Source: a virus. Taken from it: DNA of 64,000 nt. Position numbers and translations under genes: made by a program. The stretch lies in IMG/VR virus record IMGVR_UViG_3300011116_001048, positions 54,565-118,564 of that record; one strand, given 5' to 3'. Shown piece after piece: positions 10,238 through 64,000 of this stretch; within the stretch, counting starts at the first letter, position 1; each line of letters starts with the position of its first letter. A model generated the notes under the pieces. That model saw nothing but the letters and a program-made list of their open reading frames with translations. It did not search any database and was not told the DNA's origin.

Positions 10238-11010
10238 AAATAGAAATAATAACATTACCGAGTGCAAAAAATAGACAAGAAAGAATGCAAAAATTATTTG
10301 GTGAATTTAATTTACTATTTACATTCAAAAATGGTATATCTCAAGATGAATGTTCTTTTGAAAATATTCATGGGCTGTGGTATGTTAATTGTAAAGGTAA
10401 AAAATTTTTAATAAATGAACCAAAAATATTAAAATATACAAATCGAGCTTGGATGCGTTTTGGAGAAATTGCGGCATATCTTGCCCATTATTTTTTATGG
10501 AAAGAGTTTTTAAACACGGAAGACGAATATTTGGTTATCTGTGAAGATGATGCAAAACCACAATCAAATTTATCTAAATTAAAACAATTATTTTTATCAA
10601 ATAATGATGTTTGTTTTTTAAATCTACAAGCAGTAACAGCACACAATCAATCAAAAACCCCCGGTTACAATTTTCCTCATGTTAACGTACTATCTCCAGA
10701 TCTGGTAGAATACATTAATACCCCAGCACTTCCATTATTATGTGAAGGATTGGCCGCATACGCCATAAACAAAAATGGAGCTAAAATTTTAACCGATTAC
10801 GTAGAAAATAATGGTTATGTTGGTCCTAATGATTGTATGTTAGCTCAAGTAGTCAAAGAAAATATTTTAAAAATACATTCTCCAAAAGATATAGACCAGT
10901 ATTTTTTATTAGATGAGCAGACATATGAACATTCATATACCCATAGCGGAAAATTTGAATTATTACATAATTTTAATACAACTTATATTAATAAAGTTAC
11001 ACAATTTTGA
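10234..11010 (+). CDS. GT25-like (LgtB/Lex2B-type) glycosyltransferase
   Basis: IITLPSAKNRQERM, GEIAAYLAHYFLW, LVICEDDA, AAYAINKNGAKIL. Confidence 0.8.
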   Translation: MKIEIITLPSAKNRQERMQKLFGEFNLLFTFKNGISQDECSFENIHGLWYVNCKGKKFLINEPKILKYTNRAWMRFGEIAAYLAHYFLWKEFLNTEDEYLVICEDDAKPQSNLSKLKQLFLSNNDVCFLNLQAVTAHNQSKTPGYNFPHVNVLSPDLVEYINTPALPLLCEGLAAYAINKNGAKILTDYVENNGYVGPNDCMLAQVVKENILKIHSPKDIDQYFLLDEQTYEHSYTHSGKFELLHNFNTTYINKVTQF

Positions 11011-11046
11011 TATAAGATATACTGATAGACCTTTAAGGAAATAATA

Positions 11047-11898
11047 ATGAACATATCATTTATTGATTTTTGGGATGGATTCGTATATGAAAATAATTTT
11101 TTTATTGATTTATTAAAATCAATGAATAGAAATTACAATTTAGTTCCATTTTCAGACAAAACTGATGTTTTAATTTATTCTTGTTTTGGTGAAAGGCACA
11201 AAGCAGCAAACAGAAATAAAGTTAAAAAAATATTTTATACCGGAGAAAATGTAAGACCAAATTATAATGATTGTGATTATAGTTTAACATTTGATTTTGA
11301 TACGTATTCTCATAAAAATATACGATTACCTTTATGGTTATTACAATTAGATTGGTTTAATAAAAAAAACTATGGCAATCCACAATTTGTCATTCCATTA
11401 CAAGAAATAGCTTATAATAAATGGATACAAAAAGAAAAAACTCAATTTTGTTCTATTGTTTTTAATAATCCCTCACCATATAGAATAGAAATGATACAAA
11501 AGTTGTCAAAATATAAACCAGTTCATTGTTATGGAAGAGTAACTAATAACTCTATTCCTTATGGAGAAGATACTAAATGTGAATTAATATCTAATTATAA
11601 ATTTAATATATGTTTTGAAAATTCAATACATCCAGGCTATTATACAGAAAAATTAATACACGCAAAAATATCAGGATGTCTTCCTTTGTATTGGGCAGAC
11701 AATAATTGTGAAAAAGATTTCAATCCAAATTCATTTTTAAATCTTTACAATTTTAATAGTATAAATGAATTTGTAGATAGAGTTATATGGTTAGATAACA
11801 ATCAAGAAGAATATAATAAAATTTGCGACGAATATCTTTTTAAGGATAAGGTTTTATCACTAGATAATATAAAACAACAGCTTACTAATATTTTATAA
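11047..11898 (+). CDS. GT10-like alpha-1,3-fucosyltransferase-family protein
   Basis: DFWDGF, KIFYTGENVRP, YKFNICFENSIHPGYYTEKLIHAKISGCLPLYW. Confidence 0.82.
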   Translation: MNISFIDFWDGFVYENNFFIDLLKSMNRNYNLVPFSDKTDVLIYSCFGERHKAANRNKVKKIFYTGENVRPNYNDCDYSLTFDFDTYSHKNIRLPLWLLQLDWFNKKNYGNPQFVIPLQEIAYNKWIQKEKTQFCSIVFNNPSPYRIEMIQKLSKYKPVHCYGRVTNNSIPYGEDTKCELISNYKFNICFENSIHPGYYTEKLIHAKISGCLPLYWADNNCEKDFNPNSFLNLYNFNSINEFVDRVIWLDNNQEEYNKICDEYLFKDKVLSLDNIKQQLTNIL

Positions 11899-11915
11899 AT
11901 GAAAGAAACATTTTT

Positions 11916-12554
11916 ATGATATATCAAAGAGAAAGTACTTTACCATACCCCCAACCATGGGAATATGTTATGCATAACATATTTAATAATGCAAAAAATT
12001 TATTTTTTGTTGATGTTGGAGCTCATGATGGATTATGTTCATCTAATACAGCATATGCCGAAATGGATTTAGAATGGAATGGTATTTGTGTAGAACCACA
12101 CCCAGATGTATACCCCAAGCTAATAAAAAATAGAAAATGCAAAACCTACAATTGTTGTATAAGTCAAAATACTGAAGAAGTAGAATTTTGTAGTATACGA
12201 GGATATTCTGAGATGTTAAGTGGGATAAAATCAGCATATGACGAAAAACATATGGATAGAATCAAAAATGAAATTACAAATCATGGCGGTGAATTAAATA
12301 TAATAAAAATTCAATCCAAAACATTAAATGATTTATTTCAAGAAAATAATATAAATCATATTAATTATCTTTCTATTGATACCGAAGGATCCGAATTAAA
12401 CGTTTTAAAAAGTGTAGATTTGAACAAATACAAAATAGATGTAATAAGTGCAGAAAATAATGGTTACAATTCAGATGTTAAAGATTATTTAAATGATTTA
12501 TATCTTTTTGTTGGTAAAGTTTGCCACGATGAAATTTATGTGAGAAAACCATAA
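11916..12554 (+). CDS. FkbM-family methyltransferase
   Basis: FFVDVGAHDG..SNT, WNGICVEP, YLSIDTEGSELNVL, ISAENN. Confidence 0.88.
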   Translation: MIYQRESTLPYPQPWEYVMHNIFNNAKNLFFVDVGAHDGLCSSNTAYAEMDLEWNGICVEPHPDVYPKLIKNRKCKTYNCCISQNTEEVEFCSIRGYSEMLSGIKSAYDEKHMDRIKNEITNHGGELNIIKIQSKTLNDLFQENNINHINYLSIDTEGSELNVLKSVDLNKYKIDVISAENNGYNSDVKDYLNDLYLFVGKVCHDEIYVRKP

Positions 12555-13555
12555 TGAAAACTATTTGCTTTTATACACCACATTTCACTGTAAGAGGAAC
12601 AGAAGTAGCCGTTTACGACTATGCTCATTATAATGAAAAAATATTAGGAAATAAATCTATAATTGTTCATCATAAAAATGATTCCAGAAATGAGGCAGAA
12701 TCTGTTACTAAGTTTAAAAATAGATTTGATGTTGTTTCTATGGAAGGATTCAATTATATTGAAAATAATCCAAGAGCTCATGCCGCAGAAGTTGTAACTC
12801 AATTAAATAAAGTTATCGAAACTAATAAAGCAGATGCCATGTATTTAATAAAAGGTGGTTGGAATGATGGTATAGTTCCAACAGCATGCAAAAGCCTCAT
12901 ACACTGCTGTGGGCTTCCTCCAGTAACAGAGAAGCACGGTGATCGTTATGCGTACGTTTCTTATTGGTGCAGTCAACATTGCTCTAATGGAACCATACCA
13001 GCAGTTCCGCATATGGTAGATTTACCAGATATAAATGAAGATTTTAGATTAGAATTAAATATTCCACAAAATGCAACAGTATTTGGTAGGTCTGGAGGAT
13101 ATGATACTTTTGATCTTCCATGGGTAAAACAAATTATACAAGAAGTATTAAAACGACGATCTGATATTTTCTTTATATTTTTAAATACTGAAAAGTTTAT
13201 AGATCATCCAAATGTAATTCATCTGGGTAAAAACACAGATTTAATTTATAAAACAAAATTTATTAATACTTGTGATGCAATGCTTCATGGTAGATTTATT
13301 GGTGAATCTTTTGGTTTGAGCTGTGGAGAATTTTCTATAAGAAATAAACCAGTAATAACTTGGTTTGGTTCTAAAGAAAGAAATCACATCTATATTTTAG
13401 GCGACAGAGGAATTTATTATAATAACCCTACAGATTTATTTAAAATATTAATGAATTATGATCGAGAATATTACCTAAATAAAGACAACAATTGCTATAG
13501 AGATTATAGCCCAGAAAAAATAATTAAGGTATTTGATGAGGTTTATTTAAAATGA
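12554..13555 (+). CDS. GT-B fold (GT4-like) glycosyltransferase
   Basis: RGTEVAVYDYAHYNE, FGRSGG, DAMLHGRFIGESFGLSCGEF (E-x7-E-like). Confidence 0.78.
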   Translation: MKTICFYTPHFTVRGTEVAVYDYAHYNEKILGNKSIIVHHKNDSRNEAESVTKFKNRFDVVSMEGFNYIENNPRAHAAEVVTQLNKVIETNKADAMYLIKGGWNDGIVPTACKSLIHCCGLPPVTEKHGDRYAYVSYWCSQHCSNGTIPAVPHMVDLPDINEDFRLELNIPQNATVFGRSGGYDTFDLPWVKQIIQEVLKRRSDIFFIFLNTEKFIDHPNVIHLGKNTDLIYKTKFINTCDAMLHGRFIGESFGLSCGEFSIRNKPVITWFGSKERNHIYILGDRGIYYNNPTDLFKILMNYDREYYLNKDNNCYRDYSPEKIIKVFDEVYLK

Positions 13556-14370
13556 AAAACAATCTAGTAATTACAACTTCTTTATTTGATCTAAATAGAC
13601 AAAATTGGAAAAATTATAATAGATCTATAGATCAATATAAAGCTTATTCTAAAGGAATGTTGTCGCTTGATTGCGACATGGTAATTTATACACAGCCGCA
13701 ATTTAAAACTTATTTTGAAGAAGCAAGATCAGGTAAAGAAAATAAAACAAAAATAATAACAATGAGTTTGGAAGAAATTCCATATTATGAATATATGGAA
13801 GAAATAACAAACTTAATGAATAGTGATTTTTTTATTAAAAATGTAAGAAATGTACCTGGAATTGATATATACAGACCAGAAGCAAATTATCCAATTTATA
13901 ATATTATACAATTTGCAAAATCAAAATTTGTTAAAAATACAATAAAAAATAATTATTTTAATTCCAAATACCATTGTTGGATGGATGTTGGCATTTATCA
14001 TGACAAATACCCCGAAAGATTTAAAAATAAAAAATATCCTAGTAGGAATTTAGAACAATTAGATGATGAAAAGATTCACCATTTTTATGTCGATTTTCCA
14101 AGAGAAACTGATTTGAATAAGTTAGAATATTATTCAATGATTGGTGATGTTAGAATGGCCGGTGGTTGGTTTGGTGGAGTTAAAAATTCTATGATATTGT
14201 ATTCAGAATTAATAGAAGATGTTGTAAAACAGTCTATAAAAGAAAATGTTATTTCCGATGATCAAAACATGTATACAATAGCGTATTTACAAAATAAAGA
14301 TAAATTTACACTACATGATGGAAGGTTTGCAGTAAATCCCATGTTTGCTGGTCTGGATTATTTTCTATGA
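13552..14370 (+). CDS. HtrL/YibB (WlaTC)-like protein
   Basis: TTSLFDL, YNIIQFAKSKFV, YHCWMDVG, MAGGWFGG, ISDDQNMY. Confidence 0.72.
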   Translation: MKNNLVITTSLFDLNRQNWKNYNRSIDQYKAYSKGMLSLDCDMVIYTQPQFKTYFEEARSGKENKTKIITMSLEEIPYYEYMEEITNLMNSDFFIKNVRNVPGIDIYRPEANYPIYNIIQFAKSKFVKNTIKNNYFNSKYHCWMDVGIYHDKYPERFKNKKYPSRNLEQLDDEKIHHFYVDFPRETDLNKLEYYSMIGDVRMAGGWFGGVKNSMILYSELIEDVVKQSIKENVISDDQNMYTIAYLQNKDKFTLHDGRFAVNPMFAGLDYFL

Positions 14371-15191
14371 TTAGTGTTACACTGTATGGTCGTTTAGGTA
14401 ATCATTTATGGCAATATGCTGTTTGTAGAACTGTTGCTGAACAAAAAAACTACGAATATCATATTCCTAAAAATTTTTTAGGAATTCATCTGTTTGATTG
14501 TTCTTTGGGTACAGAACAAGATCTAACAAATAAATGTTTTCCAACATGTAATAACCACGATCAGATGCAAAAATACGATCCAGAAATATTTAATATTGAA
14601 GATTTTACAAAAATAGATGGTTATGTTCAAACAGAAAAATACATTAAACATAATAAAAAAAATATAATAGAATGGTTTAAACCAAAACATGATGTCACTC
14701 CAATAATAAAAGAACTAAAATTAGATGAGGATGTTTGTGTTATTGGATTTAGAGGAGGGGATTATAAAGATAAACCTCACGTATATCTTAATATAAAGTT
14801 TTATTACGATTCTATGGATTATATGCGAAGTATAAATCCTAATATTAAATTTATTATTATTACAGATGATCCAGAAGAAGCAAAGAAGCATTTTTCTGAA
14901 TATCCAATTTATAATTATGGAATGGTTGGAGATTTTTATGCGATACAATTTGCAAAATATTTAATAATAGCAAATTCCACATTTTATTGGTGGGCAGCTT
15001 GGTTGAATACCAGATCAAAAGTAACCGTTCTTCCAAAGTATTGGTTACGACATAATATAAGTGAAGGGTGGTGGATGCCTTCTGATTCTCTAACAGAAGA
15101 TTTTATTTATATTGATAGAGATGGAAAAGTCCAAACTTATGAGCATTGTTTGGCCGAAATAACAGATATAAATTATCAACCGCAATACTAA
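14367..15191 (+). CDS. GT11 alpha-1,2-fucosyltransferase-family protein
   Basis: GRLGNHLWQYA, GYVQTEKY, GFRGGDY, IITDDPE, IIANSTFYWWAAWL. Confidence 0.88.
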   Translation: MISVTLYGRLGNHLWQYAVCRTVAEQKNYEYHIPKNFLGIHLFDCSLGTEQDLTNKCFPTCNNHDQMQKYDPEIFNIEDFTKIDGYVQTEKYIKHNKKNIIEWFKPKHDVTPIIKELKLDEDVCVIGFRGGDYKDKPHVYLNIKFYYDSMDYMRSINPNIKFIIITDDPEEAKKHFSEYPIYNYGMVGDFYAIQFAKYLIIANSTFYWWAAWLNTRSKVTVLPKYWLRHNISEGWWMPSDSLTEDFIYIDRDGKVQTYEHCLAEITDINYQPQY

Positions 15192-15197
15192 TTTATC

Positions 15198-15824
15198 ATG
15201 CTAAATTTAGTAATAATAACTTCTGTAATTAATGCGTTTGTTCCATCTATATATTCTTCAACAGAAAGATTAGAACAAACTTTAAGATCTATACAAACAG
15301 TCAAAGACAAAATACCAAATTCTTATATAGTATTGCTAGAAGGAAGTCAATTAAATGAAGATCACTCCATTATCTTACGAAGCAAAACAGATGAATTATT
15401 TTATATAGATGTTTCTGGATTACCAAAAAGTGTTGGAGAATTAACTTTATTGGATTCGTATTTAAATTGTGAAAATTTTAATATTATTAAAGATAAAATT
15501 AATAGTTTAAGTAAATTATCTGGCAGATATTATCTAAATGATAATTTTAAATTTGTTGATAATAATTTATGTATGGTAAAAAAAACAGATAAATCATGGA
15601 GCGGAAAAGGAACGTACGATACCAGATTTTATAAAATACCAAAAATTTTATTAAATAATTATATTACGAATTTAAAACAAGTTTATTTGAATAGGTATAA
15701 TATACACGATATTGAACATGGGTTTTACGAATATCAAGTTATATCAAAAGACAATATAATGCTCTTAGATAAACTAGGAGTGTCCGGTAATTATGCCCCA
15801 AATGGGGGATATGTAGAGGATTAA
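15198..15824 (+). CDS. Hypothetical, probable GT-A-like glycan synthesis protein
   Basis: VIITSVIN...ERLEQTLRSIQTV...IVLLEGS, KLSGRYYL, DIEH; embedded in the GT operon. Confidence 0.6.
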   Translation: MLNLVIITSVINAFVPSIYSSTERLEQTLRSIQTVKDKIPNSYIVLLEGSQLNEDHSIILRSKTDELFYIDVSGLPKSVGELTLLDSYLNCENFNIIKDKINSLSKLSGRYYLNDNFKFVDNNLCMVKKTDKSWSGKGTYDTRFYKIPKILLNNYITNLKQVYLNRYNIHDIEHGFYEYQVISKDNIMLLDKLGVSGNYAPNGGYVED

Positions 15825-15826
15825 AT

Positions 15827-16429
15827 ATGCTAAGAACAGAAATTATTAATTTATTAATAAACAAGAATAACTACGAATCATATTTAGAAATTGGAATAGG
15901 CGATGGTGGTAATTTTACACAAATAAATTGCAAAACAAAAATCAGTGTAGATCCGCATCCAGAATGTTACAAATTAAATCCAACATTTAAAATGACTTCT
16001 GATGAGTTTTTTAAAATTAATAAACAAAAATTTGATATCATTTTTGTAGATGGCCTTCATACATTCGAGCAAACATACATCGATATCAAAAATGCGTTAT
16101 CGTGTTTAAATGAAAATGGAATAGTATTAGCTCATGATACTTTACCACCATCCGAATACCACCAACGAGAACCAGACCAATATAAGATTGGGGAGGCATG
16201 GAATGGTACTTGCTGGAAAGCAATTGCCAAACTTAGAATAGAAGAAGAAAATCTGACAATTAATACGGTCGATACTGATTGGGGGGTTTCTTTAATTAAA
16301 TTTGGTAAAAATAATAAATTTAATACAGAAAAAAATTCAACATTAGATTACTTATTTTTTTCTAAAAATAAATTAAATTTAATGAACATAATTACAATTG
16401 AACAATTTAAAAATTTATATTTATCATGA
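15827..16429 (+). CDS. Class I SAM-dependent methyltransferase (Methyltransf_24-like)
   Basis: SYLEIG, VDP, FDIIFVDGLHTFEQ, VLAHDTLP, WNGTCWKA. Confidence 0.85.
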   Translation: MLRTEIINLLINKNNYESYLEIGIGDGGNFTQINCKTKISVDPHPECYKLNPTFKMTSDEFFKINKQKFDIIFVDGLHTFEQTYIDIKNALSCLNENGIVLAHDTLPPSEYHQREPDQYKIGEAWNGTCWKAIAKLRIEEENLTINTVDTDWGVSLIKFGKNNKFNTEKNSTLDYLFFSKNKLNLMNIITIEQFKNLYLS

Positions 16430-16944
16430 TAATAGGAGAATATACATACGGTCACGAGACCATTAATTTAATAAAACCAAAAGAAAATCCTTATAATTTA
16501 ATTATAAAAAAATTTTGTTCTATTGGGGAAAATTTAACAGTTTATATGGGAGGTCACCATAGAAAAGAATGGATTACTACGTATCCTTTTGGTCATAGAT
16601 ACAAACAAACATTTAATCAATTTGATGGAAAAGAATACTGCGTATTTAAAGGTGATGTGATTATAGGAAATGACGTATGGATTGGAATGAATGTGTTTAT
16701 TATGGATGGAGTCTCCATAGGAGATGGTGCAATAATTGCTGCTAATTCTCATGTTATAAAAAACGTAGAACCATATTCAATATACGGTGGAAATCCAGCA
16801 AAATTAATAAAATATAGATTTTCAAAAGAATTAATAAATCATTTATTAAAATTACAATGGTGGGACAAATCAATTGAAGAAATTAATAGCATATTGACAA
16901 TATTGTGTTCAAATAATTACGAGGATATAAAAAAAATAAAATGA
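16426..16944 (+). CDS. Hexapeptide-repeat O-acetyltransferase (CatB/Vat-like fold)
   Basis: IGEYTYG, KFCSIG, ITTYPF, IGNDVWIG, IGDGAIIAA, YGGNPAKLIKYRF. Confidence 0.88.
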   Translation: MIIGEYTYGHETINLIKPKENPYNLIIKKFCSIGENLTVYMGGHHRKEWITTYPFGHRYKQTFNQFDGKEYCVFKGDVIIGNDVWIGMNVFIMDGVSIGDGAIIAANSHVIKNVEPYSIYGGNPAKLIKYRFSKELINHLLKLQWWDKSIEEINSILTILCSNNYEDIKKIK

Positions 16945-17825
16945 AAATACTTTACATATCATTAGGACAACCTGATTATCAGTGTGATTGTGTCATGCAC
17001 GGATTATATAATTTATTGGGGGCAGATTTAACACATACAGATAATTATCATTTAATGTATAAACAGCACACTAGTCCAGAATTACTAAAAACTATTTCCG
17101 GGAGAGGTTTTACTATATGGGGCAATCTTCCATTATACCTCAATGATAATTCTGATATTGAAAATAAAATAAAATCCAAATATTTTGATTATGTAATATA
17201 TGGCAGCTATAGAAGGTGTTTAGATTATTTGGATACAGTAAAGCAAAATTATCCAGCAAATAAAATAGCGTTTATAGACGGAGAAGATGATACTAATTTA
17301 ATTAAACCAGCTGATGGAGTTATATTTAAAAGAGAATTGGTTTATGATATTAATGGAGTACATCCGATATCTTTTGCAATACCCAAAGAAAAAATATGGA
17401 ACAATGCAACATTAAAAGAAAAATATAAAAAAATAGCAAACTATAAACCATCAAATCCTGGAACCGGATATGTGTATACAGAAGAACAAGAATACTATAA
17501 TGATTATAAAACATCCTATTTTGCTCTTACACACAAAAAGGGAGGTTGGGATTGTATGCGGCATTATGAAATTTTAGCAAATTTTTGCATACCGTATTTT
17601 CCAAATATAGAAAATTGCCCAACAAAAACCATGTACAATTTTCCTAAAGATAAAATTATTAAAGGCAATAAAATGTTTGAAGATAATTTTAATGAAGACA
17701 TCAAAACAATTAATATAGAACAATACTCTGAATTATTATACAGCATTTTTGAATATACAAAAAATAATTTAACAACAGAAAATTTAGCAAAATATATTAT
17801 ACATACTATAAAGAAGGATTCTTAA
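16941..17825 (+). CDS. Putative GT-B glycosyltransferase
   Basis: FIDGED, FKREL, HPISFAIP, KKGGWDCMRHYEILANFCIPYF. Confidence 0.62.
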   Translation: MKILYISLGQPDYQCDCVMHGLYNLLGADLTHTDNYHLMYKQHTSPELLKTISGRGFTIWGNLPLYLNDNSDIENKIKSKYFDYVIYGSYRRCLDYLDTVKQNYPANKIAFIDGEDDTNLIKPADGVIFKRELVYDINGVHPISFAIPKEKIWNNATLKEKYKKIANYKPSNPGTGYVYTEEQEYYNDYKTSYFALTHKKGGWDCMRHYEILANFCIPYFPNIENCPTKTMYNFPKDKIIKGNKMFEDNFNEDIKTINIEQYSELLYSIFEYTKNNLTTENLAKYIIHTIKKDS

Positions 17826-17827
17826 TT

Positions 17828-18823
17828 ATGAAAAATGTTTTAATTACAGGCGGCGTTGGTTTTGTTGGTCACCATATGGTGAATTATTTATTACAAAATA
17901 GTGATGCAAATATTATTGTTATGGATAGATTGGATACTTCTGGTAATCTTAATCGATTAACAGAAATGACCAGCTATCAAAAAAATAAAAATCGTGTAAA
18001 TTTTGTTTGGCATGATTTTAAATCAGAAATTATTAAAAACGAAGTACTGGGAGCCATGTTAGGTAAACCAGATACTATACTACACGTCGGCGCAGGATCG
18101 CATGTTGACAGAAGTATTGAAGATCCATTATCCTTTGTTATGGATAATGTCGTAGGTACATGTAATGTTTTAAATTATGCAAGACAATTAGATAATTTAG
18201 AAAATATAGTATATTTTTCTACAGATGAAGTATTCGGCCCTGCTGCACCTGGCATCGCACATCATGAGTGGCATCATTATAATTCCGGCAATCCGTATTC
18301 TGCATCAAAGGCAGGAGGAGAAGAACTTTGTCTAGCATTCCACAATACGTATAAATTACCAGTTATGATATCGCATTGTATGAATATTTTTGGTGAACGA
18401 CAACACCCAGAGAAATTTATACCTTCTTGTATACGAAAAATATACAAAGGCGAAAAGGTAATAATTCACAGCAATAAAGATTTAACAAAAGCAGGAAGTA
18501 GATTTTATATTCACGCAAATAATGTGTGCTCTGCTGTGAACTTTATATTAAATAAAGGAACTCATGGAGACAAGTACAATATCGTTGGAGAAAAAGAATT
18601 AGATAATTATCAAGTTGCTTCTATTATCGCGGATATTCTTGGCAAACCATTAAATTATCAATTTGTTGATTTTCATAGTAGCAGACCTGGGCACGATTTA
18701 AGATATGCTCTAGACGGTTCAAAATTGGCAAAAATGGGCTGGAATTTAGAATGCACCGTAGAAAAATCATTAGAAGCTACCGTTAAATGGTCATTAGAAA
18801 ATCCTAAATGGATTGGAATGTAA
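17828..18823 (+). CDS. rfbB: dTDP-glucose 4,6-dehydratase (RmlB/RfbB-type extended SDR)
   Basis: TGGVGFVG, SHVDRSI, STDEVFG, NPYSASKAGGE (YxxxK), NIFGERQHPEKFIP, RPGHDLRYALD. Confidence 0.88.
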   Translation: MKNVLITGGVGFVGHHMVNYLLQNSDANIIVMDRLDTSGNLNRLTEMTSYQKNKNRVNFVWHDFKSEIIKNEVLGAMLGKPDTILHVGAGSHVDRSIEDPLSFVMDNVVGTCNVLNYARQLDNLENIVYFSTDEVFGPAAPGIAHHEWHHYNSGNPYSASKAGGEELCLAFHNTYKLPVMISHCMNIFGERQHPEKFIPSCIRKIYKGEKVIIHSNKDLTKAGSRFYIHANNVCSAVNFILNKGTHGDKYNIVGEKELDNYQVASIIADILGKPLNYQFVDFHSSRPGHDLRYALDGSKLAKMGWNLECTVEKSLEATVKWSLENPKWIGM

Positions 18824-54449: not shown

Positions 54450-56831
54450 TTATTTTTTATTTTTCTTTTTCTTTAACTGTACTTCTAGATAAGGAATGCT
54501 TGCTCTACCAACGAAAGGAAAATTGGAACCAGGAGTGTCTTTTAGTAGCTTTTCGACTACTTCTGGGGTGCCTTCAAATCCAGCGCCATGATCCTCATTC
54601 ATGCTGCGGTTTTTAGATTTGGGTAATACTCGTAGATTGCTATCGCCGTTATTTTTTGGATTGCCGTCTTTATGGTCTACATCTTTACCGTCACCTTTGC
54701 GGACTTTGCCCTTTTTCTCCATTTTACGACGAGCTAATACACGTTTGCTGCGGTTAGCACGTTGTTCCGGTTTGCTGTGATAATTATCGTATTCTTTACG
54801 GTAATTTCTAGCTTCAGTTAACCCGAATTCATTTTCCATTATGATGAGAGCATCCAACATGTCAATATTTCCTGCTTTGATATTTTCTATCAAAGAATCG
54901 TTCAGTAAAATATATTGTTCCAGGAGTGCGTCTGCACCTTTTTCTAGAACATTTTGTTCATTGCCTTCGGGATCGTAATTTTTTTGAACCGGAATTTGAA
55001 TTTGTTCTTCTGAATTGGTATTTGCATTAAAAATGATTGTATTGCTTGCATCATTATCACCCGCATAAAAATCAGAATATTCTATTGGCATTTTAAATGT
55101 AGCATCTGAAATTCCTAGTTCAAATGCTTGTAAAAACGCTGCAGGAGTATTAATTTGATTTTTAATAGATTCAATGTCACCGATAACAGATAAAGTGTTT
55201 TCCATTAGTGGTGTCATTTTTTGGAACAAGGTTTGTAAAAATCCACCACTAGAATTTGGAGTTTGAATAAATTTTAAAATTAAATTTGTATCTTTAGATT
55301 TGGCCAATGTTAAAGCAAAATTTTGATCTAAAGGAATTGCTTTAGCGTTAGTTCCATCTTTCTTTGCAGTAAACATCATCTGGGCAGAACCGGTTTTACC
55401 ACCAAATTTAATATTGCCTGTGAGAGCTTCTAATAATATAGCAGCTTTTAGGTCGTAATTTTCATTAATATAATTTTCTACTAATTCACCGGCTCGATTT
55501 AACAACGTCTTTTGGGAGTTTTGTGTAGTTTCGGCTCTCCATTTTTCGCGTGCCAAAGCAATAGATCCCTCACGAGAATTTTGTAGTGCTAAAGGTATAG
55601 ATTGGCTTGAAAACGTTTGTCGTAATTGTTGAATAAAATCGTTTACAAACATATCAAAAGAACCAACAATCTGTTGTAACGGCATCATAGCATTTATTGC
55701 ATTAAAAATAATACCGGCTTCCCCTTTACTAATAGGGCGTATTTCTTCTCCAATTTTAATACAAACTCCTAAAGATTGTCCTTTTGTTTTACCGATAACT
55801 GTGGCAGCTGGTGCTGATTCTTTTACGCCCATCTGTGACCATACTTTAGTTGTTTTTACAACAGGATCGGATTTAGTAAAAGTCATAGTGGCAGCAGCAG
55901 GAAATGCAGAATAAATTTCTTTAGCAAATCTTTGCATTGCGTCACCAAACGTTCTGCTTGTATTAATAAATTGTTGATATTCGGTTGACGGTTGTTTTCC
56001 AGATAAAGAATTTAGTGCATCACCAACCCCTGCAACAAATTGAGGAACTGTGTGGTCCCATTCAGGGAAAGTTGAATCTGGATTAGTCATTTCCTTTCCG
56101 TCTTTTGGTGTTCTTAAATGTGGAGGAGTTGGTGTTTCCGTTTTTTCAGATTGTTTTGGTTGCATTTGTTTAGATTTATTTTGTTTTGTGGTTTCTTCTT
56201 TTTCGCGCTCAACACGACCACCAAGCAATCTGATTGATGTTTTGGTGTTCATAAAATTATCTAAACTAGAATAATATGTAAGATCGCGTTTAGTTACATT
56301 ACCTTTATCTTGTTTTTTGGTTTTTCCTTTTAACAGCGTGTGGTGATTTGGATTGTAATCGTGTTTGGTTATAATTTCAATTTTATTTAATTTTGTGTTT
56401 TTAACAATTACAACATTTGCCAGACCAGCTTGCTTTTCTTGTTTACGTGCTTCGCGTTTGCGATCTCTTTCACGATCTTTAGAATCTACTTCCGGGCGCA
56501 TTTTTTGTTTTTCGCGTTTTAACGCAGTTCGTTTAGATTCTGCTTCTGAAAGCAAAGAATTTAAAAATGCATCATTAATTTGTTGGATTTTATCACCAAA
56601 CATAGATTCGCGCATTTGTAGCCCTTTAGCTTTTGCCTGATACAAATCTCTGGCTAGTTCTGCTTTCAATCGTCCTTTTCGTATAGCGGTTTCTCTATCA
56701 AAATTGGCTATTTTTTTTCTGTTTTCAAATTTTTGTTTTTGATACGGAATATTAAGTTCCCACAACAGAATAGATTCTGTTAGAAAGTCAGCGTACTCGG
56801 ATTCATTGAACCAGGAAGGGGTATTAGACAT
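54450..56831 (-). CDS. Large late protein with C-terminal HNH module
   Basis: 793 aa; KDVDHKDGNPKNNGDSNLRVLPKSKNR HNH motif between LTE and MNE sites; CATAAATA at 56843-56850. Confidence 0.75.
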   Translation of the reverse strand: MSNTPSWFNESEYADFLTESILLWELNIPYQKQKFENRKKIANFDRETAIRKGRLKAELARDLYQAKAKGLQMRESMFGDKIQQINDAFLNSLLSEAESKRTALKREKQKMRPEVDSKDRERDRKREARKQEKQAGLANVVIVKNTKLNKIEIITKHDYNPNHHTLLKGKTKKQDKGNVTKRDLTYYSSLDNFMNTKTSIRLLGGRVEREKEETTKQNKSKQMQPKQSEKTETPTPPHLRTPKDGKEMTNPDSTFPEWDHTVPQFVAGVGDALNSLSGKQPSTEYQQFINTSRTFGDAMQRFAKEIYSAFPAAATMTFTKSDPVVKTTKVWSQMGVKESAPAATVIGKTKGQSLGVCIKIGEEIRPISKGEAGIIFNAINAMMPLQQIVGSFDMFVNDFIQQLRQTFSSQSIPLALQNSREGSIALAREKWRAETTQNSQKTLLNRAGELVENYINENYDLKAAILLEALTGNIKFGGKTGSAQMMFTAKKDGTNAKAIPLDQNFALTLAKSKDTNLILKFIQTPNSSGGFLQTLFQKMTPLMENTLSVIGDIESIKNQINTPAAFLQAFELGISDATFKMPIEYSDFYAGDNDASNTIIFNANTNSEEQIQIPVQKNYDPEGNEQNVLEKGADALLEQYILLNDSLIENIKAGNIDMLDALIIMENEFGLTEARNYRKEYDNYHSKPEQRANRSKRVLARRKMEKKGKVRKGDGKDVDHKDGNPKNNGDSNLRVLPKSKNRSMNEDHGAGFEGTPEVVEKLLKDTPGSNFPFVGRASIPYLEVQLKKKKNKK

Positions 56832-58140: not shown

Positions 58141-59745
58141 TCAGCTGCCTAACATTTTCTTGAAGTAACCGGTTACGTCAGAGCCTGTAGAACTGAATAC
58201 TCGGTACTGTTTTTTTCCATATACTACTCTACGAACCCCTCTAATAGAAGACGCAAACACGTCTACTTTTTTGCCGTCTTGTAGATAAGAAACTTTATAT
58301 TTTTGTTTCTTTAATCGGCGTTGCAGCGATTCTTTGGGAGACAGTTTTCCTTCGGAAACCATAATTTGTTGGGTCATCCATCTACGTAGGAATGGATCAA
58401 ACGCTCCAATACGTTTTTTTGCGGCGTATCTCTCTCCGGCAGCAAGTTGATCTTGATACACTGATTGCGGTAACGACGGCGACGCACCGCTGGTAAAAAA
58501 ATCTGGTATTTGTGGTCTTGCCTTTCCCGGTTTAACTTTAGATTTGCTTTTTCCACTACTTCCATCACTTTTTCCCGTTGTTGCAGCCGCAGCAGCAACC
58601 GCTGCGGCTGTAGCTACTGCTGTTGCTTTTGCTCTTGCTGTGTCTGTAATTTTATCAGCAGTTTGATCTACCGTTTGATCTGCAGCTTTAGCCGCATCCT
58701 TGGCCACATCCTTGGCCGCATCCTTGGCCGCATCCTTGGCGGTATTTTGGGGGCTGGCCGTAGTTTTTCCGGTAACTAGATCTGGTGTTTTTGTTTCCTC
58801 CGGTGCCGCAATACCAGCAGGAGGTGCACCCGCTTCAGGTGCTTTTGGAGCCTTTGGAGAAACAATATCTTGTACAGTTTGTTTACCAGATTTTCCTGCT
58901 GGAGGTGCTGGGGCAGCAGGCTTTTGTGTAACTTTTATTTTTGAAACATCGGATTTAGGTAATTCTGGTGTTCTGGTTGGTGCTTCTATGCTGGCAGGAG
59001 GTCTTGGTGTTGGGCTGTACTCTACACCAGGCTTTGCTTCGGCTGCTCCGAGCTGTAATTTTGCCGCAGCAATAAACGTGTAAAGTGGCTTTTTTAATAG
59101 ATCCATAGCAGTTTTCTTTGCTGCTTGTGTTGCGGTTTCTATTCCAGTTTTAAGTGGACTTGGTGGAGTTGGTTCGGATCTGAGACCGCGTTCATGACGA
59201 GCCAACCACGCTATATCGTCAGCACTTCTTGCACTTGCAGGAGTGTCTCGTATTTGTTGTGCAATTTCGTCTGCTGCTTTTGCGTGTGCAGATTGTATTT
59301 CACTGGTTGAGACTTGTCTTCCTTTTTTTTCTGCTTCTATTTTCAGTTCTGATATTTTTTGAGTGGCTTTTTCTGCGGCTCTTGCGGCTGCGGCTTTTGA
59401 TACTCCTTCTACCCCTGCAACAACAGGTTCAACCTGTTCGGCCAGAACTACAGCACAATTTTTTATTATTTTTTCCGCAATTAAAGAAATATCTTTGGAA
59501 GTAATCTCGTCTTCTGATGTTTCTGTTATATTTGGAATACGGAACGGGCTACCAGCACTCTCGTTTAACACACCAAAATGCACACCCATTCCGTAACAAA
59601 TTATGGTTTGAAACTCGTTTGCTATTTCAGTAAATTCTGTCAGTGTAGGATAACAACCATGCTCTGTTTTAAAGAGCATGGCTGCTTCGGTTAGTAGCGA
59701 TTTAATGTACTGTTTTTCTGAAACTTCTAAAAGAGTATTGGGCAT
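58141..59745 (-). CDS. Pro/Ala/Lys-rich late protein (putative capsid-internal polyprotein)
   Basis: LTE, LNE, LAE, VSE sites; long low-complexity linker; basic C-terminal domain; CTAAATA at 59751-59757, 5 nt before ATG. Confidence 0.72.
   Translation of the reverse strand: MPNTLLEVSEKQYIKSLLTEAAMLFKTEHGCYPTLTEFTEIANEFQTIICYGMGVHFGVLNESAGSPFRIPNITETSEDEITSKDISLIAEKIIKNCAVVLAEQVEPVVAGVEGVSKAAAARAAEKATQKISELKIEAEKKGRQVSTSEIQSAHAKAADEIAQQIRDTPASARSADDIAWLARHERGLRSEPTPPSPLKTGIETATQAAKKTAMDLLKKPLYTFIAAAKLQLGAAEAKPGVEYSPTPRPPASIEAPTRTPELPKSDVSKIKVTQKPAAPAPPAGKSGKQTVQDIVSPKAPKAPEAGAPPAGIAAPEETKTPDLVTGKTTASPQNTAKDAAKDAAKDVAKDAAKAADQTVDQTADKITDTARAKATAVATAAAVAAAAATTGKSDGSSGKSKSKVKPGKARPQIPDFFTSGASPSLPQSVYQDQLAAGERYAAKKRIGAFDPFLRRWMTQQIMVSEGKLSPKESLQRRLKKQKYKVSYLQDGKKVDVFASSIRGVRRVVYGKKQYRVFSSTGSDVTGYFKKMLGS
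58691..58740. repeat. 12-bp tandem repeat x4 (GCCGCATCCTTG) encoding AKDA
   Basis: Four units at 58691, 58703 (one mismatch), 58715 and 58727. Confidence 0.9.
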
Positions 59746-59759
59746 ACTCTTATTTAGTA

Positions 59760-60326
59760 TTACTTTGCTGGCAGCACAAATCGAATAGGCCAGTAACGGG
59801 TACCGTCGCCGTTTCCAAACAATATCCAGTCTTCCACACGAAGAGGATCGTACGGCCTAAGCGTACCGTCTGCCAGATTTACGGTAAAAACACCACCACC
59901 AGTGCCCAACTTACGCCAAACAGCCAGAGAAATAGGCGTTTGGTGTGAATCGGAAATAATGGTGTATCCCTGATCAGCCAGCCAACGGTACATGGCAGGA
60001 GCAATACCCTGCCCAACGTAATCGTTGTGAACACGAATACGATCCATAGTGTACACCTTTCGGCTCCACTGGAACGCTCCGGGCGGAACAGGCGCACTCA
60101 CAAGACGGGCAACCAGCACAACATCACCGTTGTTATCGGTGGCCATAACCAGCACACCATTTCCTTGCAGTGTACGAATGTGCTTCAGTTCAATAGCCAG
60201 ACCGTTCAGGTCACGAGTACCCCAGTGCTTGGTAACAGTACCGGGGGTTTGATCAAACTCCTTGATTTCCTTGTTAAAAGAGGCGAGATGGTCACTATCG
60301 ATTGTAATAGTAGGGGTAAGAATCAT
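59760..60326 (-). CDS. GNAT-family acetyltransferase-like protein
   Basis: IRVHNDYVGQGIAPAMYRW (acetyl-CoA motif A), ISDSHQT..AVWRKL. Confidence 0.68.
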   Translation of the reverse strand: MILTPTITIDSDHLASFNKEIKEFDQTPGTVTKHWGTRDLNGLAIELKHIRTLQGNGVLVMATDNNGDVVLVARLVSAPVPPGAFQWSRKVYTMDRIRVHNDYVGQGIAPAMYRWLADQGYTIISDSHQTPISLAVWRKLGTGGGVFTVNLADGTLRPYDPLRVEDWILFGNGDGTRYWPIRFVLPAK

Positions 60327-60332
60327 AATGGT

Positions 60333-60360
60333 AATATACACCACAGAATAAAAATGTCAA
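60333..60360 (-). promoter_or_regulatory. sigma70-like promoter of the GNAT gene
   Basis: TTGACA-16 nt-TATATT; shares TCTGTGG in the spacer with the rnh promoter. Confidence 0.65.
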
Positions 60361-60378
60361 GAATGAAGTATAAATTTC

Positions 60379-60386
60379 CATAAATA
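60379..60386 (+). promoter_or_regulatory. T4-type late promoter (CATAAATA) of the candidate ncRNA
   Basis: Same box variant as at 56843 and 62023; followed by a structured non-coding unit. Confidence 0.6.
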
Positions 60387-60516
60387 ATGGTGATCGGGCT
60401 GAGTTGGTCGTAGACAGTCCTCAAGCGAACTACGCTACTCATGCTAAAAAGGGAACTTCGCTACCTTTCGGTCGTCATAGGGCAGGGGAGAGTTCGCGCT
60501 CTCTCCTGCTTTTTTT
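60387..60516 (+). ncRNA. Candidate structured small RNA (three-way junction with complementary loops)
   Basis: Late promoter, GC-rich non-coding tract with closing stem, two hairpins whose loops pair (AGCGAA/TTCGCT), and a terminator; only an 8-codon ORF. Confidence 0.62.
60482..60516 (+). terminator. Intrinsic terminator
   Basis: GCAGGGGAGAG-TTCGCG-CTCTCTCCTGC (11 bp, one G-U) followed by T7. Confidence 0.88.
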
Positions 60517-60523
60517 ATAAATA
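60516..60523 (+). promoter_or_regulatory. T4-type late promoter (TATAAATA)
   Basis: Perfect consensus overlapping the terminator T-run; AAGGAA RBS before the ATG at 60555. Confidence 0.75.
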
Positions 60524-60554
60524 CAGGTAAGAGTATATAGCAAGGAATACCAAA

Positions 60555-61490
60555 ATGGATATAGAAAATATTAAAAAGAATATTAAACAATCAATTGTAC
60601 AAAACTTTATAGCAGAAGCCAAGATGAAAGACGGCCCGGGCAAGACCAGCCAACGCCCAAAAAGTTGGGACAAAGGCATCAAGGCCGGTTCGGAGAAACG
60701 CAAGATGCGTGAACAAGGCAAGCGTGAAGCCCGCGATATGCAAGAGGGAGTCGGTGATTTTTTTGGTACAGATAGAGAAGGAAACACCCGAGGATTAGGT
60801 AGAAATTATGGTGTAGAACACGAGCCTGATGTGGTATCGGGAGCAGAAATGACTCATATTCAACACTTTGAGCAAGTTGATCCGCGAGATGTTAGTAAAG
60901 GATTTCAGTACAGAAAAGGTTCAAAACTAGCAAGACACGGTATTCCTGTTGCACTGTTAAACACTTCAACTCTGCTACCAAAATCAGGAGCCGAAGCAGA
61001 ATTTGCAAAACTACCTAATGCGCTAAAATATCTGCAAGACGTTAAAAATTACCATTGGGATTCGTACAGCCGAAACGTTGATGCAAGACGAAGTGGCCTT
61101 AAAGGAGCAGGAGCCAATGTGCGATACCACACTCAGATGGGTATTGCTACAAAAGCTTTAATAGAAAAACTCAGAGGCGGTCAACAAACTAGTAGTTTAA
61201 CAGAAGGCGAATCTTGGGGACCAGAGTTTGCTGGTTCGTCTCAAGACGATGCCACCGCTCGTGCTTACGAAGAACAAAGCCGAGAAGCAGACATGGAACC
61301 TACTCCCAAGACTCATAAAGATGTTATAAAAGAACTGTCTGCCGCACACGAAAAACGGTCTGCCGCACATGAAGCAGCGTTAAGTCATGCGTATACCGCA
61401 GCAACTATGGGTAAAAGGAAACTAACTCCAGAGCAAATGAGAGACGTGTATCATAAACACTACAGAAGTAGTATGGGTAGCCCAGACTGA
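60555..61490 (+). CDS. Late hypothetical protein (putative capsid-internal)
   Basis: 311 aa; NFIAE, MQE and LTE sites separate modules. Confidence 0.72.
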   Translation: MDIENIKKNIKQSIVQNFIAEAKMKDGPGKTSQRPKSWDKGIKAGSEKRKMREQGKREARDMQEGVGDFFGTDREGNTRGLGRNYGVEHEPDVVSGAEMTHIQHFEQVDPRDVSKGFQYRKGSKLARHGIPVALLNTSTLLPKSGAEAEFAKLPNALKYLQDVKNYHWDSYSRNVDARRSGLKGAGANVRYHTQMGIATKALIEKLRGGQQTSSLTEGESWGPEFAGSSQDDATARAYEEQSREADMEPTPKTHKDVIKELSAAHEKRSAAHEAALSHAYTAATMGKRKLTPEQMRDVYHKHYRSSMGSPD

Positions 61491-61717: not shown

Positions 61718-62017
61718 TTATCGCCACCGACGACCTTGCATATTATTGCCTTGATCGTAGCGTCCGCGTAGACTTTTGGGTTGGCCGCGTTTGATCTTGT
61801 TCATCAGTTCGCTCCAGCGTCCGCCGGTAGCCTTATCTGGCGTCAAAGTGTAGTCTGCTCCCAATGCGGGCGTACATCCGGCCCATGACTTCTTCACGGT
61901 TCCTTCCGCCTTGCACTTGGGACATGGAAGAGTGGTGGGCAGGTCACGATCCTTCATCATATGGACTTCTTCCCATAACTTCTTACACTTATCACACTCA
62001 TAGTTGTAGGTTGGCAT
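61718..62017 (-). CDS. FmdB-family zinc-ribbon protein
   Basis: MPTYNYECDKC...PCPKC; CATAAATA at 62023-62030, 5 nt before ATG. Confidence 0.85.
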   Translation of the reverse strand: MPTYNYECDKCKKLWEEVHMMKDRDLPTTLPCPKCKAEGTVKKSWAGCTPALGADYTLTPDKATGGRWSELMNKIKRGQPKSLRGRYDQGNNMQGRRWR

Positions 62018-62177
62018 GGAAGTATTTATGGGACTTTGGGGATGCGTCTGATAACCTAGTATACTTCACCCTGTCCGATAAGCAAATGGTATCTCCGATA
62101 TTCCGATTCCCGTATCTGGATTCTGTGAATACAAAATGTATAATACACAATATACTATCAACTTTCTGAACTTTATT

Positions 62178-62789
62178 TCAGCCGTAGAAGCGGGACAGGG
62201 CAGCGTACACCTGGGACGGAATGGTGGCGTGGGCCTTGGCCTTGAAGTCGCTGGGCATCATCTCCACCATTCGCCACGACCTGTACGGGTTCCGTCCGCT
62301 CCGCCAGCATCCTGTGTCACGCATCAGATGGTGAGAATAAATGTACAGGTTGGCGTACCGGGCGTATGCAGCCACATCTATAGGCAAGCCCTTGGCTTTG
62401 GCAAGACGCATGGCTCGTATTTCTGCATCACGCTCAAACGCCATCACACGGGCGAACGCCTTGCGTAGCACCGCTGGGGCTGGAGCCTTGCCACGGTGAA
62501 GGTAGTCGTGGACAATACAGGCGGCTGCGTTGTCGGCGTTGTACACATGGGCGGGCTGTTCCACCCATTGACGGAAGTGGGCGTACTCGTGGAGGAGTGT
62601 GCCAAGCCAATGGGGATGGCCCCGTGCCACCCTGATGATCCGGCGACGGTCGCAGAAGAAGCCCTCTGCCCGCCAGCCACCTCCGTTCACTTCCCGGCCC
62701 CGACCAAAGCAAAGACGGAACCCATAGGAATGGAGTTCCGCCTTCACTTGCTCAACGAACTTTCGTACTTCGGATTTCAGTTTCCCCAT
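62178..62789 (-). CDS. HExxH metallopeptidase-like protein
   Basis: TLLHEYAHFRQW and downstream ERDAE; GC-rich. Confidence 0.68.
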   Translation of the reverse strand: MGKLKSEVRKFVEQVKAELHSYGFRLCFGRGREVNGGGWRAEGFFCDRRRIIRVARGHPHWLGTLLHEYAHFRQWVEQPAHVYNADNAAACIVHDYLHRGKAPAPAVLRKAFARVMAFERDAEIRAMRLAKAKGLPIDVAAYARYANLYIYSHHLMRDTGCWRSGRNPYRSWRMVEMMPSDFKAKAHATIPSQVYAALSRFYG

Positions 62790-62804
62790 TCTGAACCCTC
62801 CGTA

Positions 62805-64000
62805 TTATGTATGCTTTGCCACCGCCTCAACCATGCGGTTCACAAGACTACGGCTGACGATCTTGCGGGACAGGCTCTTGATGAACTGCGACTTGAGCCG
62901 GGTGTAGTTGGTGTTGCTCAAGTCCAAATCCTCGTAGGCATCCGTTTCCTGCTTGCGGGCGATACGGATGGCGAACACAGAGCCGAAGCCAAGGCCGTCC
63001 CCAGCCACCTTGCTGCCGTCGTGGGTGTACACCACCGGGAGAGCAGACAGGTAGTACTCGTCGTTCCAATGCTTGCCAAGAGCATCACCAGCAGGATCGT
63101 CCTTCAGGTAGTACTTGTTGGCATCACGAACCACCTTGCCGTCCGGGGTAGCCAGCGTGTAGCCGGGGATGATGTCGTTGGGCGTGTTGTTGCCCGACAG
63201 GTACAGCATCATGGTGTTGCAGCCCGTTTCGTCCATCAGATACGAGGCCAGCACATTGGTGCTGATGTTGTTGCGGAGGCTGTACGACGCACCCGTGCGA
63301 GGGTTGGTCAGACGAGTGAACCGATCACCGCTACCGTAGTAGTGGTTGTCCAGCGGCGAACTGCTGGTGCTGCCGTCCGTCACCACCACCACATTCATAA
63401 TCTCCGCACGGTGCTTCTTGCGGAACTCCTTGACCATCTGCACCGATGCAACGAGCGAATGGTCGAGCGGAGTGTCGCCCAGCGAGAGCCAATACGGGAA
63501 CGACGGAGCGTGGAGGCTGTAGTTGGGCTTGCTGGGGTTCATGTTGTACGCCAGCATCCACAACTTCTCCATCGCATCCTTGTAGGTCGCACCGTTCATG
63601 GTGCTGCTGGCGAAGTTGTACAGGAAGAACGGCGAGTGCGTTGCCACATTGGGCTTGCTGCTGTTGGTGATGAACCCCTTCGCCAAGTCCTCGAACTTGG
63701 TGGCCTCCTGCTCGTCCTGCATCGTCCTACGATAATCGTAGTAGTCACCGTAGTACTTGTCGCTGGGCTGGTTGCTGCTGAAAGCGTACACATCGAATGG
63801 CACACCGATGCGACGGAAGAACGAGGTGAGCGTGTACATCTGCTTCACCACATTCAGGATCACGCCACCCATAGAACCCGACCAATCCAGCAGCAGAATG
63901 AACCCGTGGTTCTTGCCGTTGGGCTTGATGGTGAAGTGCTTGAACAAGTCCTCGTTCCACTTGTAGGTGGACAGCAGGCCCATGTCCAGCGTTCCCGACT
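62805..64000 (-). CDS. C-terminal part of a vWA-domain (CobT-like) protein, 5' end outside window
   Basis: Open to window edge (SGTLDMGLLSTYKWNEDLFK); MIDAS LLLDWSGSM, LGDTPL, VVVTDG. Confidence 0.8.
   Translation of the reverse strand, partial: SGTLDMGLLSTYKWNEDLFKHFTIKPNGKNHGFILLLDWSGSMGGVILNVVKQMYTLTSFFRRIGVPFDVYAFSSNQPSDKYYGDYYDYRRTMQDEQEATKFEDLAKGFITNSSKPNVATHSPFFLYNFASSTMNGATYKDAMEKLWMLAYNMNPSKPNYSLHAPSFPYWLSLGDTPLDHSLVASVQMVKEFRKKHRAEIMNVVVVTDGSTSSSPLDNHYYGSGDRFTRLTNPRTGASYSLRNNISTNVLASYLMDETGCNTMMLYLSGNNTPNDIIPGYTLATPDGKVVRDANKYYLKDDPAGDALGKHWNDEYYLSALPVVYTHDGSKVAGDGLGFGSVFAIRIARKQETDAYEDLDLSNTNYTRLKSQFIKSLSRKIVSRSLVNRMVEAVAKHT

Follow-up and report, generated by a model that had tools for sequence, protein, structure and literature searches.

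The small-RNA locus and its transcription unit

Within the window, by which we mean the whole stretch of 64,000 nt analysed here (the last 64 kb of the 118.5-kb IMG/VR record IMGVR_UViG_3300011116_001048, with an estimated completeness of 65%), we found a small-RNA locus inside a 225-nt spacer that separates two diverging genes. The source is an uncultured, T4-like lake phage, which we regard as a distant T4-type phage since its DNA polymerase shares 46% identity with cyanophage gp43 of the T4-like kind. The spacer and its borders hold the following features:

59760-60329, minus: gene of a 189-aa protein, left of the spacer and reading away from the RNA gene
60360 to 60333, minus: strong sigma-70-like promoter of the 189-aa gene (TTGACA, 16 nt, TATATT; 11 of 12 matches)
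60379-60386, plus: late-promoter-like box CATAAATA, 5 nt ahead of the conserved RNA body, with a presumed promoter role by analogy with T4-type phages
60392-60516, plus: predicted small RNA with its terminator hairpin, about 125 nt, its 5' end being presumptive; kept as a unit in 74 variants
60479-60516, plus: intrinsic terminator, with a 15-bp G+C-rich stem (60479-60512), a 4-nt loop and a T run to 60516
60516-60523, plus: perfect TATAAATA box of the downstream gene, present after the terminator throughout the window's clade
60555-61490, plus: gene of a 311-aa protein, right of the spacer, with the perfect TATAAATA box ahead of it

The box and the terminator are separated by about 90 nt of non-coding sequence, and both lie where the original prediction had put them, which described a late-promoter box at 60379-60386 and a strong terminator bracketing a GC-rich stretch. 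As had also been said, the element holds only an ORF of 8 codons, and its start codon is not kept in relatives, which argues that the region is non-coding; among these is a close relative, with a flanking protein 80% identical, in which the RNA is better kept than the surrounding spacer and the ATG of the ORF is lost. A tmRNA-like tag or a small protein was considered and ruled out, neither the frame nor the stop codon being conserved.

Among the 73 variants of the RNA family for which full flanks were available, NATAAATA stands upstream of the RNA in 47, and a relaxed form of it in 58. Boxes of the late type occur 14 times in the window, five of them at most 60 nt upstream of gene starts. A terminator (hairpin plus U-run) was found on the RNA strand in 69 of the 73 variants, compared with 6 on the opposite strand, and since the terminator hairpins of other subfamilies have a wholly different sequence, they are good evidence for which strand is transcribed. 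In the window's clade the perfect TATAAATA box right after the terminator further marks the RNA as a transcription unit of its own. Like a base-pairing small RNA, the element thus combines its own box, whose promoter activity is predicted, with an intrinsic terminator, on one strand and with no conserved ORF. The RNA is probably transcribed late in infection, the box being the one indicator of timing, and the earlier description of the element as a dedicated late non-coding RNA agrees with the conservation of box, terminator and multi-helix junction.

Among the sequencing runs recorded as RNA, none contained the locus; one run labelled RNA-Seq, which we judged to be probably DNA, covers only positions 60350-60540. 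Metagenome contigs and DNA runs show a roughly ten-fold pile-up on the element relative to its flanks, which arises because many co-occurring strains share the element and is therefore uninformative on expression.

On the minus strand, the near-consensus sigma-70-type promoter (60333-60360) stops about 4 nt short of the ATG of the 189-aa gene, which suggests an early, almost leaderless minus-strand transcript diverging from the late RNA gene. Searches of the neighbouring proteins against PHROGs and Pfam gave nothing, and the protein atlas gave nothing for the 311-aa downstream protein; the upstream 189-aa protein (59760-60329, minus) resembles atlas clusters named N-acetyltransferase (GNAT), with scores of 0.95-0.97, a lead only. 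Elsewhere in the window, a 10-kb stretch at 8001-18000 has a G+C content of 26-28%, compared with 35-46% elsewhere, together with dense plus-strand ORFs of 200-330 aa, and may be an acquired gene cluster. At 62001-64000 the G+C content climbs to 56% at the end of the record, and long ORFs overlap on opposite strands near this end (62496-63998 plus, 62805-63983 minus). A 793-aa protein is encoded at 54450-56831 (minus), the sole recognisable part of which is a C-terminal HNH endonuclease domain (residues ~675-750).

Relatives and fold of the RNA

A 19-nt stretch of the hairpin P3 of the RNA recurs in 28 IMG/VR loci and in 110 metagenome contigs, and 74 distinct variants were collected from viral and metagenome contigs of fresh and sea water, of which 73 with full flanks were kept after dropping duplicates and one chance match. 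The family was retrieved by its conserved core, so that the invariance of this core is partly a matter of ascertainment. The neighbouring genes are conserved only inside subfamilies and differ between them, which indicates that the RNA is not tied to one protein gene. A blastn search of the locus against cultured phages and against E. coli genomes gave no match, and a permissive search of cultured phages returned only contaminating 23S genes, on the antisense strand. In Rfam, no family was matched by cmscan of the window at gathering scores or of the locus at E-values up to 10. Likewise, tRNA, tmRNA, riboswitches (purine and others) and the SRP Alu domain had no ARAGORN or Rfam match at the locus, and the lack of a tRNA cloverleaf claimed at the outset is borne out.

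The minimum-free-energy fold gives the same P1, P2 and P3 as the hand fold proposed in the original prediction, with these elements:

60392-60396, plus: 5' strand of P1 (GAUCG), pairing with 60469-60473; 5 bp, closing the junction
60397-60447, plus: P2 arm, with helices 60400-60404/60437-60441 and 60409-60413/60430-60434 and the apical loop AGCGAA
60424-60429, plus: apical loop AGCGAA of P2, a copy of the rRNA target sequence (23S 1932-1937) that is also able to pair with the P3 loop (60457-60462)
60448-60468, plus: P3 hairpin, with stem 60448-60452/60464-60468 and an 11-nt loop

One part of the hand fold had to be cut back, since of its 12-bp P1 only the inner 5 bp are conserved, the outer four pairs being unpaired in 10-19 of 21 close relatives. 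With the terminator included, the fold is more stable than expected (z = -4.25, with none of 200 shuffles folding as well), whereas the 95-nt body without the terminator is unexceptional (z = -1.19; 21 of 200 shuffles equally good). In the window's clade 93.5% of the cells in the hand-fold structure are paired, and the sequences are too alike for covariation to be seen there.

Across subfamilies, P1 and P2 covary in an alignment fitted to a model. The covariance model in question, R1, was built from the window's clade and recovers 67 copies from all subfamilies; in its alignment the structure pairs 89.8% of the cells (31-47% in slid controls), and 13 pairs are changed on both sides, compared with 6.2 +/- 1.4 in shuffles, none of 500 of which reach 13. 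One P1 position is AU in 32 sequences and GC in 20, and in P2 eight of the ten outer and three of the five inner pairs change on both sides, counts which lean towards the structure because they come from an alignment fitted to the model. Independent single-sequence folds gave P1 and P3 in 22 of 26 representatives. When all subfamilies were aligned by MAFFT alone, RNAalifold returned no consensus structure, as the P1 strands are misaligned there. The P3 hairpin is invariant across the family, but the family was retrieved with the hairpin sequence. The subfamilies that we call long carry an extra hairpin, the sequence of which is totally different among members.

The perfect complementarity first noted between the P2 loop (60424-60429) and the P3 loop (60457-60462) is exact, and in the window's clade 94% of the cells of this loop-loop pair are paired, with zero variation. 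A pattern search in which the P3 loop was left free found no member with a different loop, and since the P3 loop never varies, covariation cannot bear on the loop-loop pair. Moreover, the long subfamilies have no such pair and show the ancestral rRNA-antisense sequence at this place. Covariation in homologues, which had been suggested as a check on both the stems and the loops, therefore speaks for P1 and P2 across subfamilies and leaves out the invariant loop-loop pair.

Complementarity to 23S rRNA and the probable host

The reverse complement of the RNA is co-linear with domain IV of bacterial 23S rRNA (E. coli nt ~1914-2010), covering the 3' side of helix 69, helix/loop 70, the flanks of helix 71 and helix 72, with only the helix-71 hairpin deleted. 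The complementary blocks are as follows:

60401-60418, plus: an 11-mer and a 7-mer, both exact complements of Phycisphaerales-type 23S in the region of helix 72 (E. coli nt ~1987-2009)
60431-60444, plus: block against 23S nt ~1964-1977, 13 of 14 complementary (17-18 of 18 in some relatives)
60452-60467, plus: 16-nt exact complement of planctomycete 23S nt 1927-1942 (helix/loop 70), in the P3 hairpin
60473-60480, plus: CGUCAUAG, complementary at every base to 23S nt 1914-1921 (loop and 3' strand of helix 69) as found in planctomycetes, with G1918

The 11-mer and the 7-mer have two bases between their targets in the 23S that are missing from the RNA, the two bases between the core and the helix-69 block mismatch the 23S in every member, and in the window's clade the block against the 3' strand of helix 69 has drifted to wobble pairs. 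Two parts of E. coli rrl, 1913-1944 (79-88% identity) and 1963-1979, are matched on the minus strand by every subfamily, and a gap-tolerant alignment of the window's copy with E. coli rrl spans 1914-2010 with a score of 25.7, compared with 17.5 +/- 1.8 for shuffles. In blastn against planctomycete 23S, with a 6-Mb search space, E-values were 1.8e-12 for relative L400, 3e-9 for L016, 1e-6 for L030 and 0.009 for the window, always in antisense, and across the whole 118-kb phage record the RNA locus is the top match to planctomycete rRNA loci. The duplex predicted by RNAduplex with a full Phycisphaerales 23S reaches -101.7 kcal/mol, the best duplex lying at the homologous site, while 40 shuffles gave -68.8 +/- 3.8 kcal/mol and the E. 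coli 23S gave -74.1. Complementarity to a target, as expected of a base-pairing small RNA, is thus present beyond chance, with exact stretches of 16 and 8 nt and further blocks, and within the phage itself the complementary sequence amounts to one 12-mer only. In this record, with its completeness of 65%, a search for an RNA directed at the 16S tail was negative.

The Rfam model of the bacterial large-subunit rRNA (RF02541) gave no match for the window's copy. It aligns the long member L016 on the strand opposite to the RNA, at positions 1935-2020 and with about four in five bases identical, a match that is weak and truncated (7.5 bits, E 1.4, gathering score 50). A fragment of an LSU rRNA gene was rejected as an explanation, there being no match at gathering score on the transcribed strand, in favour of a derived inverted piece. 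We are highly confident that this is a real, conserved RNA gene that derives from, and is complementary to, 23S rRNA; from its sequence, it appears to go back to an inverted duplicate of some 100 nt of host 23S domain IV, trimmed afterwards.

When 185,579 species genomes were scanned for the 16-mer complementary to the P3 hairpin, 111 of the 120 matches listed were 23S genes, nearly all from Planctomycetota, the groups among these listed matches being Phycisphaerales, Planctomycetaceae, Pirellulales, Isosphaeraceae and Gemmatales. The 23S genes that bear the 16-mer have a G where E. coli has A1938, and this base is complemented by the RNA; 92 of the 111 listed also carry G1918, which is complemented by the 8-mer at 60473-60480. 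Relatives with a U for the C opposite position 1938 exist as well, as in the otherwise near-identical pair L400 and L447. The window's RNA best matches Phycisphaerales-type 23S, including that of a Lake Baikal genome, while L030 fits a rare helix-72 variant from Phycisphaerae, L018 and L031 fit a variant helix 69 loop, and in the long types an unbroken stretch of 20-23 bases agrees with the Planctomycetaceae form.

Measured against the best planctomycete 23S, the identity of the complement is 0.70-0.79 for the 3' side of helix 69, 0.68-0.96 for nt 1962-1978, 0.60-0.83 for nt 1979-1996 and 0.54-0.76 for nt 1997-2012; the 0.96-1.0 of the loop-70 core is biased, the core having been used for retrieval. 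The part corresponding to the helix-71 hairpin has an identity of 0.12-0.49 and is deleted or swapped for unrelated hairpins. The blocks not used for retrieval hold 0.54-0.96 identity while the helix-71 part and the flanking genes diverge, a pattern that points to selection for complementarity. The host, assigned from the rRNA signature as the single line of evidence, is probably a planctomycete of the Phycisphaerales. Searches of 5 and then of 401 Phycisphaerae genomes gave short, weak matches in coding regions only, and no CRISPR or prophage link.

Among these matches, about 60 nt at 58682-58745, within a gene at 58141-59745 (minus), are 78-82% identical to DNA of 3 of the 401 Phycisphaerae genomes, which may reflect a shared protein motif and is not a CRISPR spacer. 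Outside the window, 58 nt of the phage record (7468-7525) are 75% identical to DNA just upstream of a Planctomycetaceae 23S gene (L202:4374-4431), possibly as part of a tRNA-like gene. Foreign sequence interrupts several planctomycete 23S genes, upstream of the 16-mer in L210, L244, L249 and L264 and downstream of it in L286; the interruptions, which look like introns, lie inside helix 69 or just after nt ~1951, in the region complemented by the phage RNA.

Other forms of the element were also seen. Two jumbo-phage contigs (222 and 345 kb) hold a minimal form (L443:2680-2697, plus; L444:3080-3097, minus) made up of a 7-bp closing stem, a hairpin with the loop-70 complement and a terminator, which lies between tRNA genes but on the strand opposite to them. 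Family members adjoin tRNA arrays in L446 and L433 too, and L444 has a tmRNA gene and L446 a permuted one. Three prophage-like contigs, two of them from isolate genomes, carry an 18-nt loop-70 complement in its U form (L430:3594-3611, L440:5026-5043, L451:3160-3177), set within an extended hairpin of another kind that lacks the family's other parts and has no Rfam match at gathering scores.

Proposed action on host ribosomes, alternatives and known systems

The ribosomal subunits are joined through central bridges made by the region of helices 69-71, one of the best conserved RNA sequences of bacteria; beside helix/loop 70, the helix 69 loop is the other exposed element of the same inter-subunit bridge. 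Helix/loop 70 presents a single-stranded UUCCU at which the toxins MazF-mt6 and MazF-mt3 cut in free 50S and not in 70S, and the association of the subunits depends on it, as do contacts with tRNA and the ribosome recycling factor (PMC5408214). We hypothesise that the junction, closed by the 5-bp P1, would expose the 11-nt P3 loop and the 3' linker before the terminator, the exact complements of two unpaired, universally conserved stretches of 23S, helix/loop 70 (1927-1942) and the helix 69 loop (1914-1921). Late in infection, the RNA would then pair with nascent 23S or free 50S of a planctomycete host, starting at the exposed loops and spreading into the further blocks (~1964-1977, ~1987-2009), and the duplex would keep the bridge region of helices 69-71 from forming or working, with the outcome that 50S maturation or subunit joining would be blocked, or that the long duplex would be cut by RNase III. 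The AGCGAA loop of P2, a derived copy of the target, may mask or pre-organise the P3 loop.

That the RNA works by pairing with host 23S or 50S we consider likely. As the best explanation overall we favour, by a modest degree of confidence, a late antisense RNA that pairs with nascent 23S or free 50S of a planctomycete host and disables the bridge region; in the specific inhibitory outcome our confidence is lower than in the pairing. The sequences show the gene, with its conservation, strand, fold and lineage-specific complementarity; the timing of transcription, the binding and all downstream effects are what we infer from these features. Access to the target is not self-evident, since the complementary sequence is partly buried in P1, P2 and P3 and, in the window's clade, the P3 loop can pair internally, and it is hard to see what a phage would gain from disabling ribosomes at a stage when it still makes late proteins.

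The conserved junction with its covarying P1 and P2, the derived and conserved internal loop-loop pair of several subfamilies and the two invariant 23S mismatches beside the core would also suit a protein-binding or assembly RNA that acts through its own fold, its similarity to rRNA being a matter of ancestry only. We regard this as unlikely, since the least variable bases are exactly those that complement the 23S and they track lineage-specific rRNA variants, while the loop-loop pair is absent from the long subfamilies, no neighbouring protein gene is conserved across subfamilies, and neither pRNA nor any other Rfam family is matched. The packaging-like version of this idea, put forward in the original prediction as a pRNA-like architecture, is not supported, the P3 loop being the exact complement of planctomycete 23S helix/loop 70. 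An oligomerising or capsid-associated RNA, also suggested there, likewise found no support, since the P3 loop is probably not for dimerisation and the P2 loop is a derived 5-6 nt copy of the target found only in some subfamilies.

The RNA could, conversely, be protective, transiently covering helix/loop 70 and the helix 69 loop of the free 50S against ribosome-cutting toxins (of the MazF-mt6/mt3 kind, which cut UUCCU in loop 70) or other abortive-infection factors. The late-type box fits defences that are triggered by late phage products, and all the evidence on complementarity to the 23S applies equally here. Endoribonuclease toxins are in addition known to act on loop 70, which only the free 50S leaves accessible (PMC5408214). 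Masking is a serious rival, although we rate it as rather improbable, because a stably bound antisense RNA would itself block subunit joining, the complementary blocks beyond loop 70 would be superfluous, and no loop-70 toxin is known in Planctomycetota from anything tested here.

A cis-acting leader, with attenuator- or riboswitch-like control of read-through into the downstream late gene, would account for a terminator directly ahead of a plus-strand gene, and in the subfamily of L018, L020, L022 and L028 the next start codon does lie ~20 nt past the terminator, with no canonical box. It is made very improbable by the perfect TATAAATA that follows the terminator in the window's clade, by downstream genes that are unrelated between subfamilies, with no anti-terminator alternative evident, and by the minimal forms of the jumbo phages, which lie within arrays of tRNA genes but on the other strand. 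Regulatory decoys that mimic rRNA in the sense orientation are known, and the minus strand of the element does read as 23S sense sequence, so that a minus-strand product could mimic 23S domain IV and act as a decoy for an rRNA-binding protein, a modification enzyme or a toxin. We find this hard to credit, since box and terminator lie on the plus strand in nearly all variants and several G-U pairs of P1 and P2 would turn into C-A in a minus-strand product; the minus-strand promoter (60360 to 60333) cannot drive such a product, because in that direction it comes after the element. Phages are known to acquire host DNA, and attachment sites typically share a short identical core, but a non-functional remnant of captured host rDNA, a site of attachment or recombination, or a similarity due to chance is disfavoured to the point of being hardly credible, as 74 variants keep box, fold, terminator and complementary blocks while neighbours and helix-71 segment diverge, chance is excluded by E-values and shuffles, and integration in the middle of a 23S gene would destroy that gene, for which reason the attachment site was rejected.

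For the antisense RNA that would pair with host 23S, we propose, tentatively and at somewhat short of even confidence, a wider role in which phages of many lineages encode RNAs tuned to the 23S of their host phylum, seizing or disabling the large subunit at the inter-subunit bridge. If this is true, the sequence of the RNA alone would read out the host phylum of an uncultured phage, and the pairing of RNA with rRNA would add a new level to the conflict between viruses and their hosts. Should the pairing be real, it would give phages a new means of controlling translation or ribosome supply, and would offer a natural template for rRNA-directed antisense inhibitors and a practical host marker, in which the complemented signature bases G1918 and G1938 would point to Planctomycetota, a phylum for which we know of hardly any phages. 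The family is readily testable, given a short RNA and a target site located with single-base precision.

Small RNAs that act by base pairing have mRNAs among their known targets, and full-text searches of the literature found no phage RNA aimed at rRNA; as originally surmised, the element is absent from the components described for T4-like phages in the literature searched. Its nearest likeness in design is with CopA/CopT of plasmid R1, RNA I/RNA II of ColE1 and the Hfq-type sRNAs, which are loop-presenting antisense or trans-acting base-pairing RNAs, likewise small and highly folded, with their own promoter and an intrinsic terminator, and RNAs of the CopA/CopT type likewise hold a conserved complement in a hairpin loop with extra complementarity to extend the duplex. 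The targets of these RNAs are an mRNA or a replication primer, whereas the apparent target of the phage RNA is the inter-subunit region of host 23S; furthermore, unlike them, its gene is a trimmed, inverted copy of the target gene and is borne by a virus. The phi29 pRNA is also encoded by a phage, is ~120 nt long and has a three-way junction with two mutually complementary loops, but its loops pair between molecules into a ring at the portal, whereas here one loop is an rRNA complement and the other a short copy of the target that is often absent; to our knowledge, packaging in T4-type phages needs no RNA. MazF-mt6 and MazF-mt3 share the target site of the phage RNA, the UUCCU of helix/loop 70, but are endoribonucleases of host toxin-antitoxin systems that cut it, where the phage RNA would pair instead (PMC5408214). 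The closest natural case that we found is AS5, a natural chloroplast antisense RNA to 5S rRNA, the overexpression of which is reported to destabilise the 5S rRNA (PMC3017836). Like the phage RNA, AS5 is a natural RNA complementary to rRNA, but it is encoded in cis opposite its own target, in the genome that also holds this target, whereas the phage RNA is encoded in trans and is imperfect and block-wise in its complementarity, with a tertiary fold of its own. In architecture the phage RNA is like the loop-presenting antisense RNAs, but it is directed at what would be a new class of target, the rRNA of the host.
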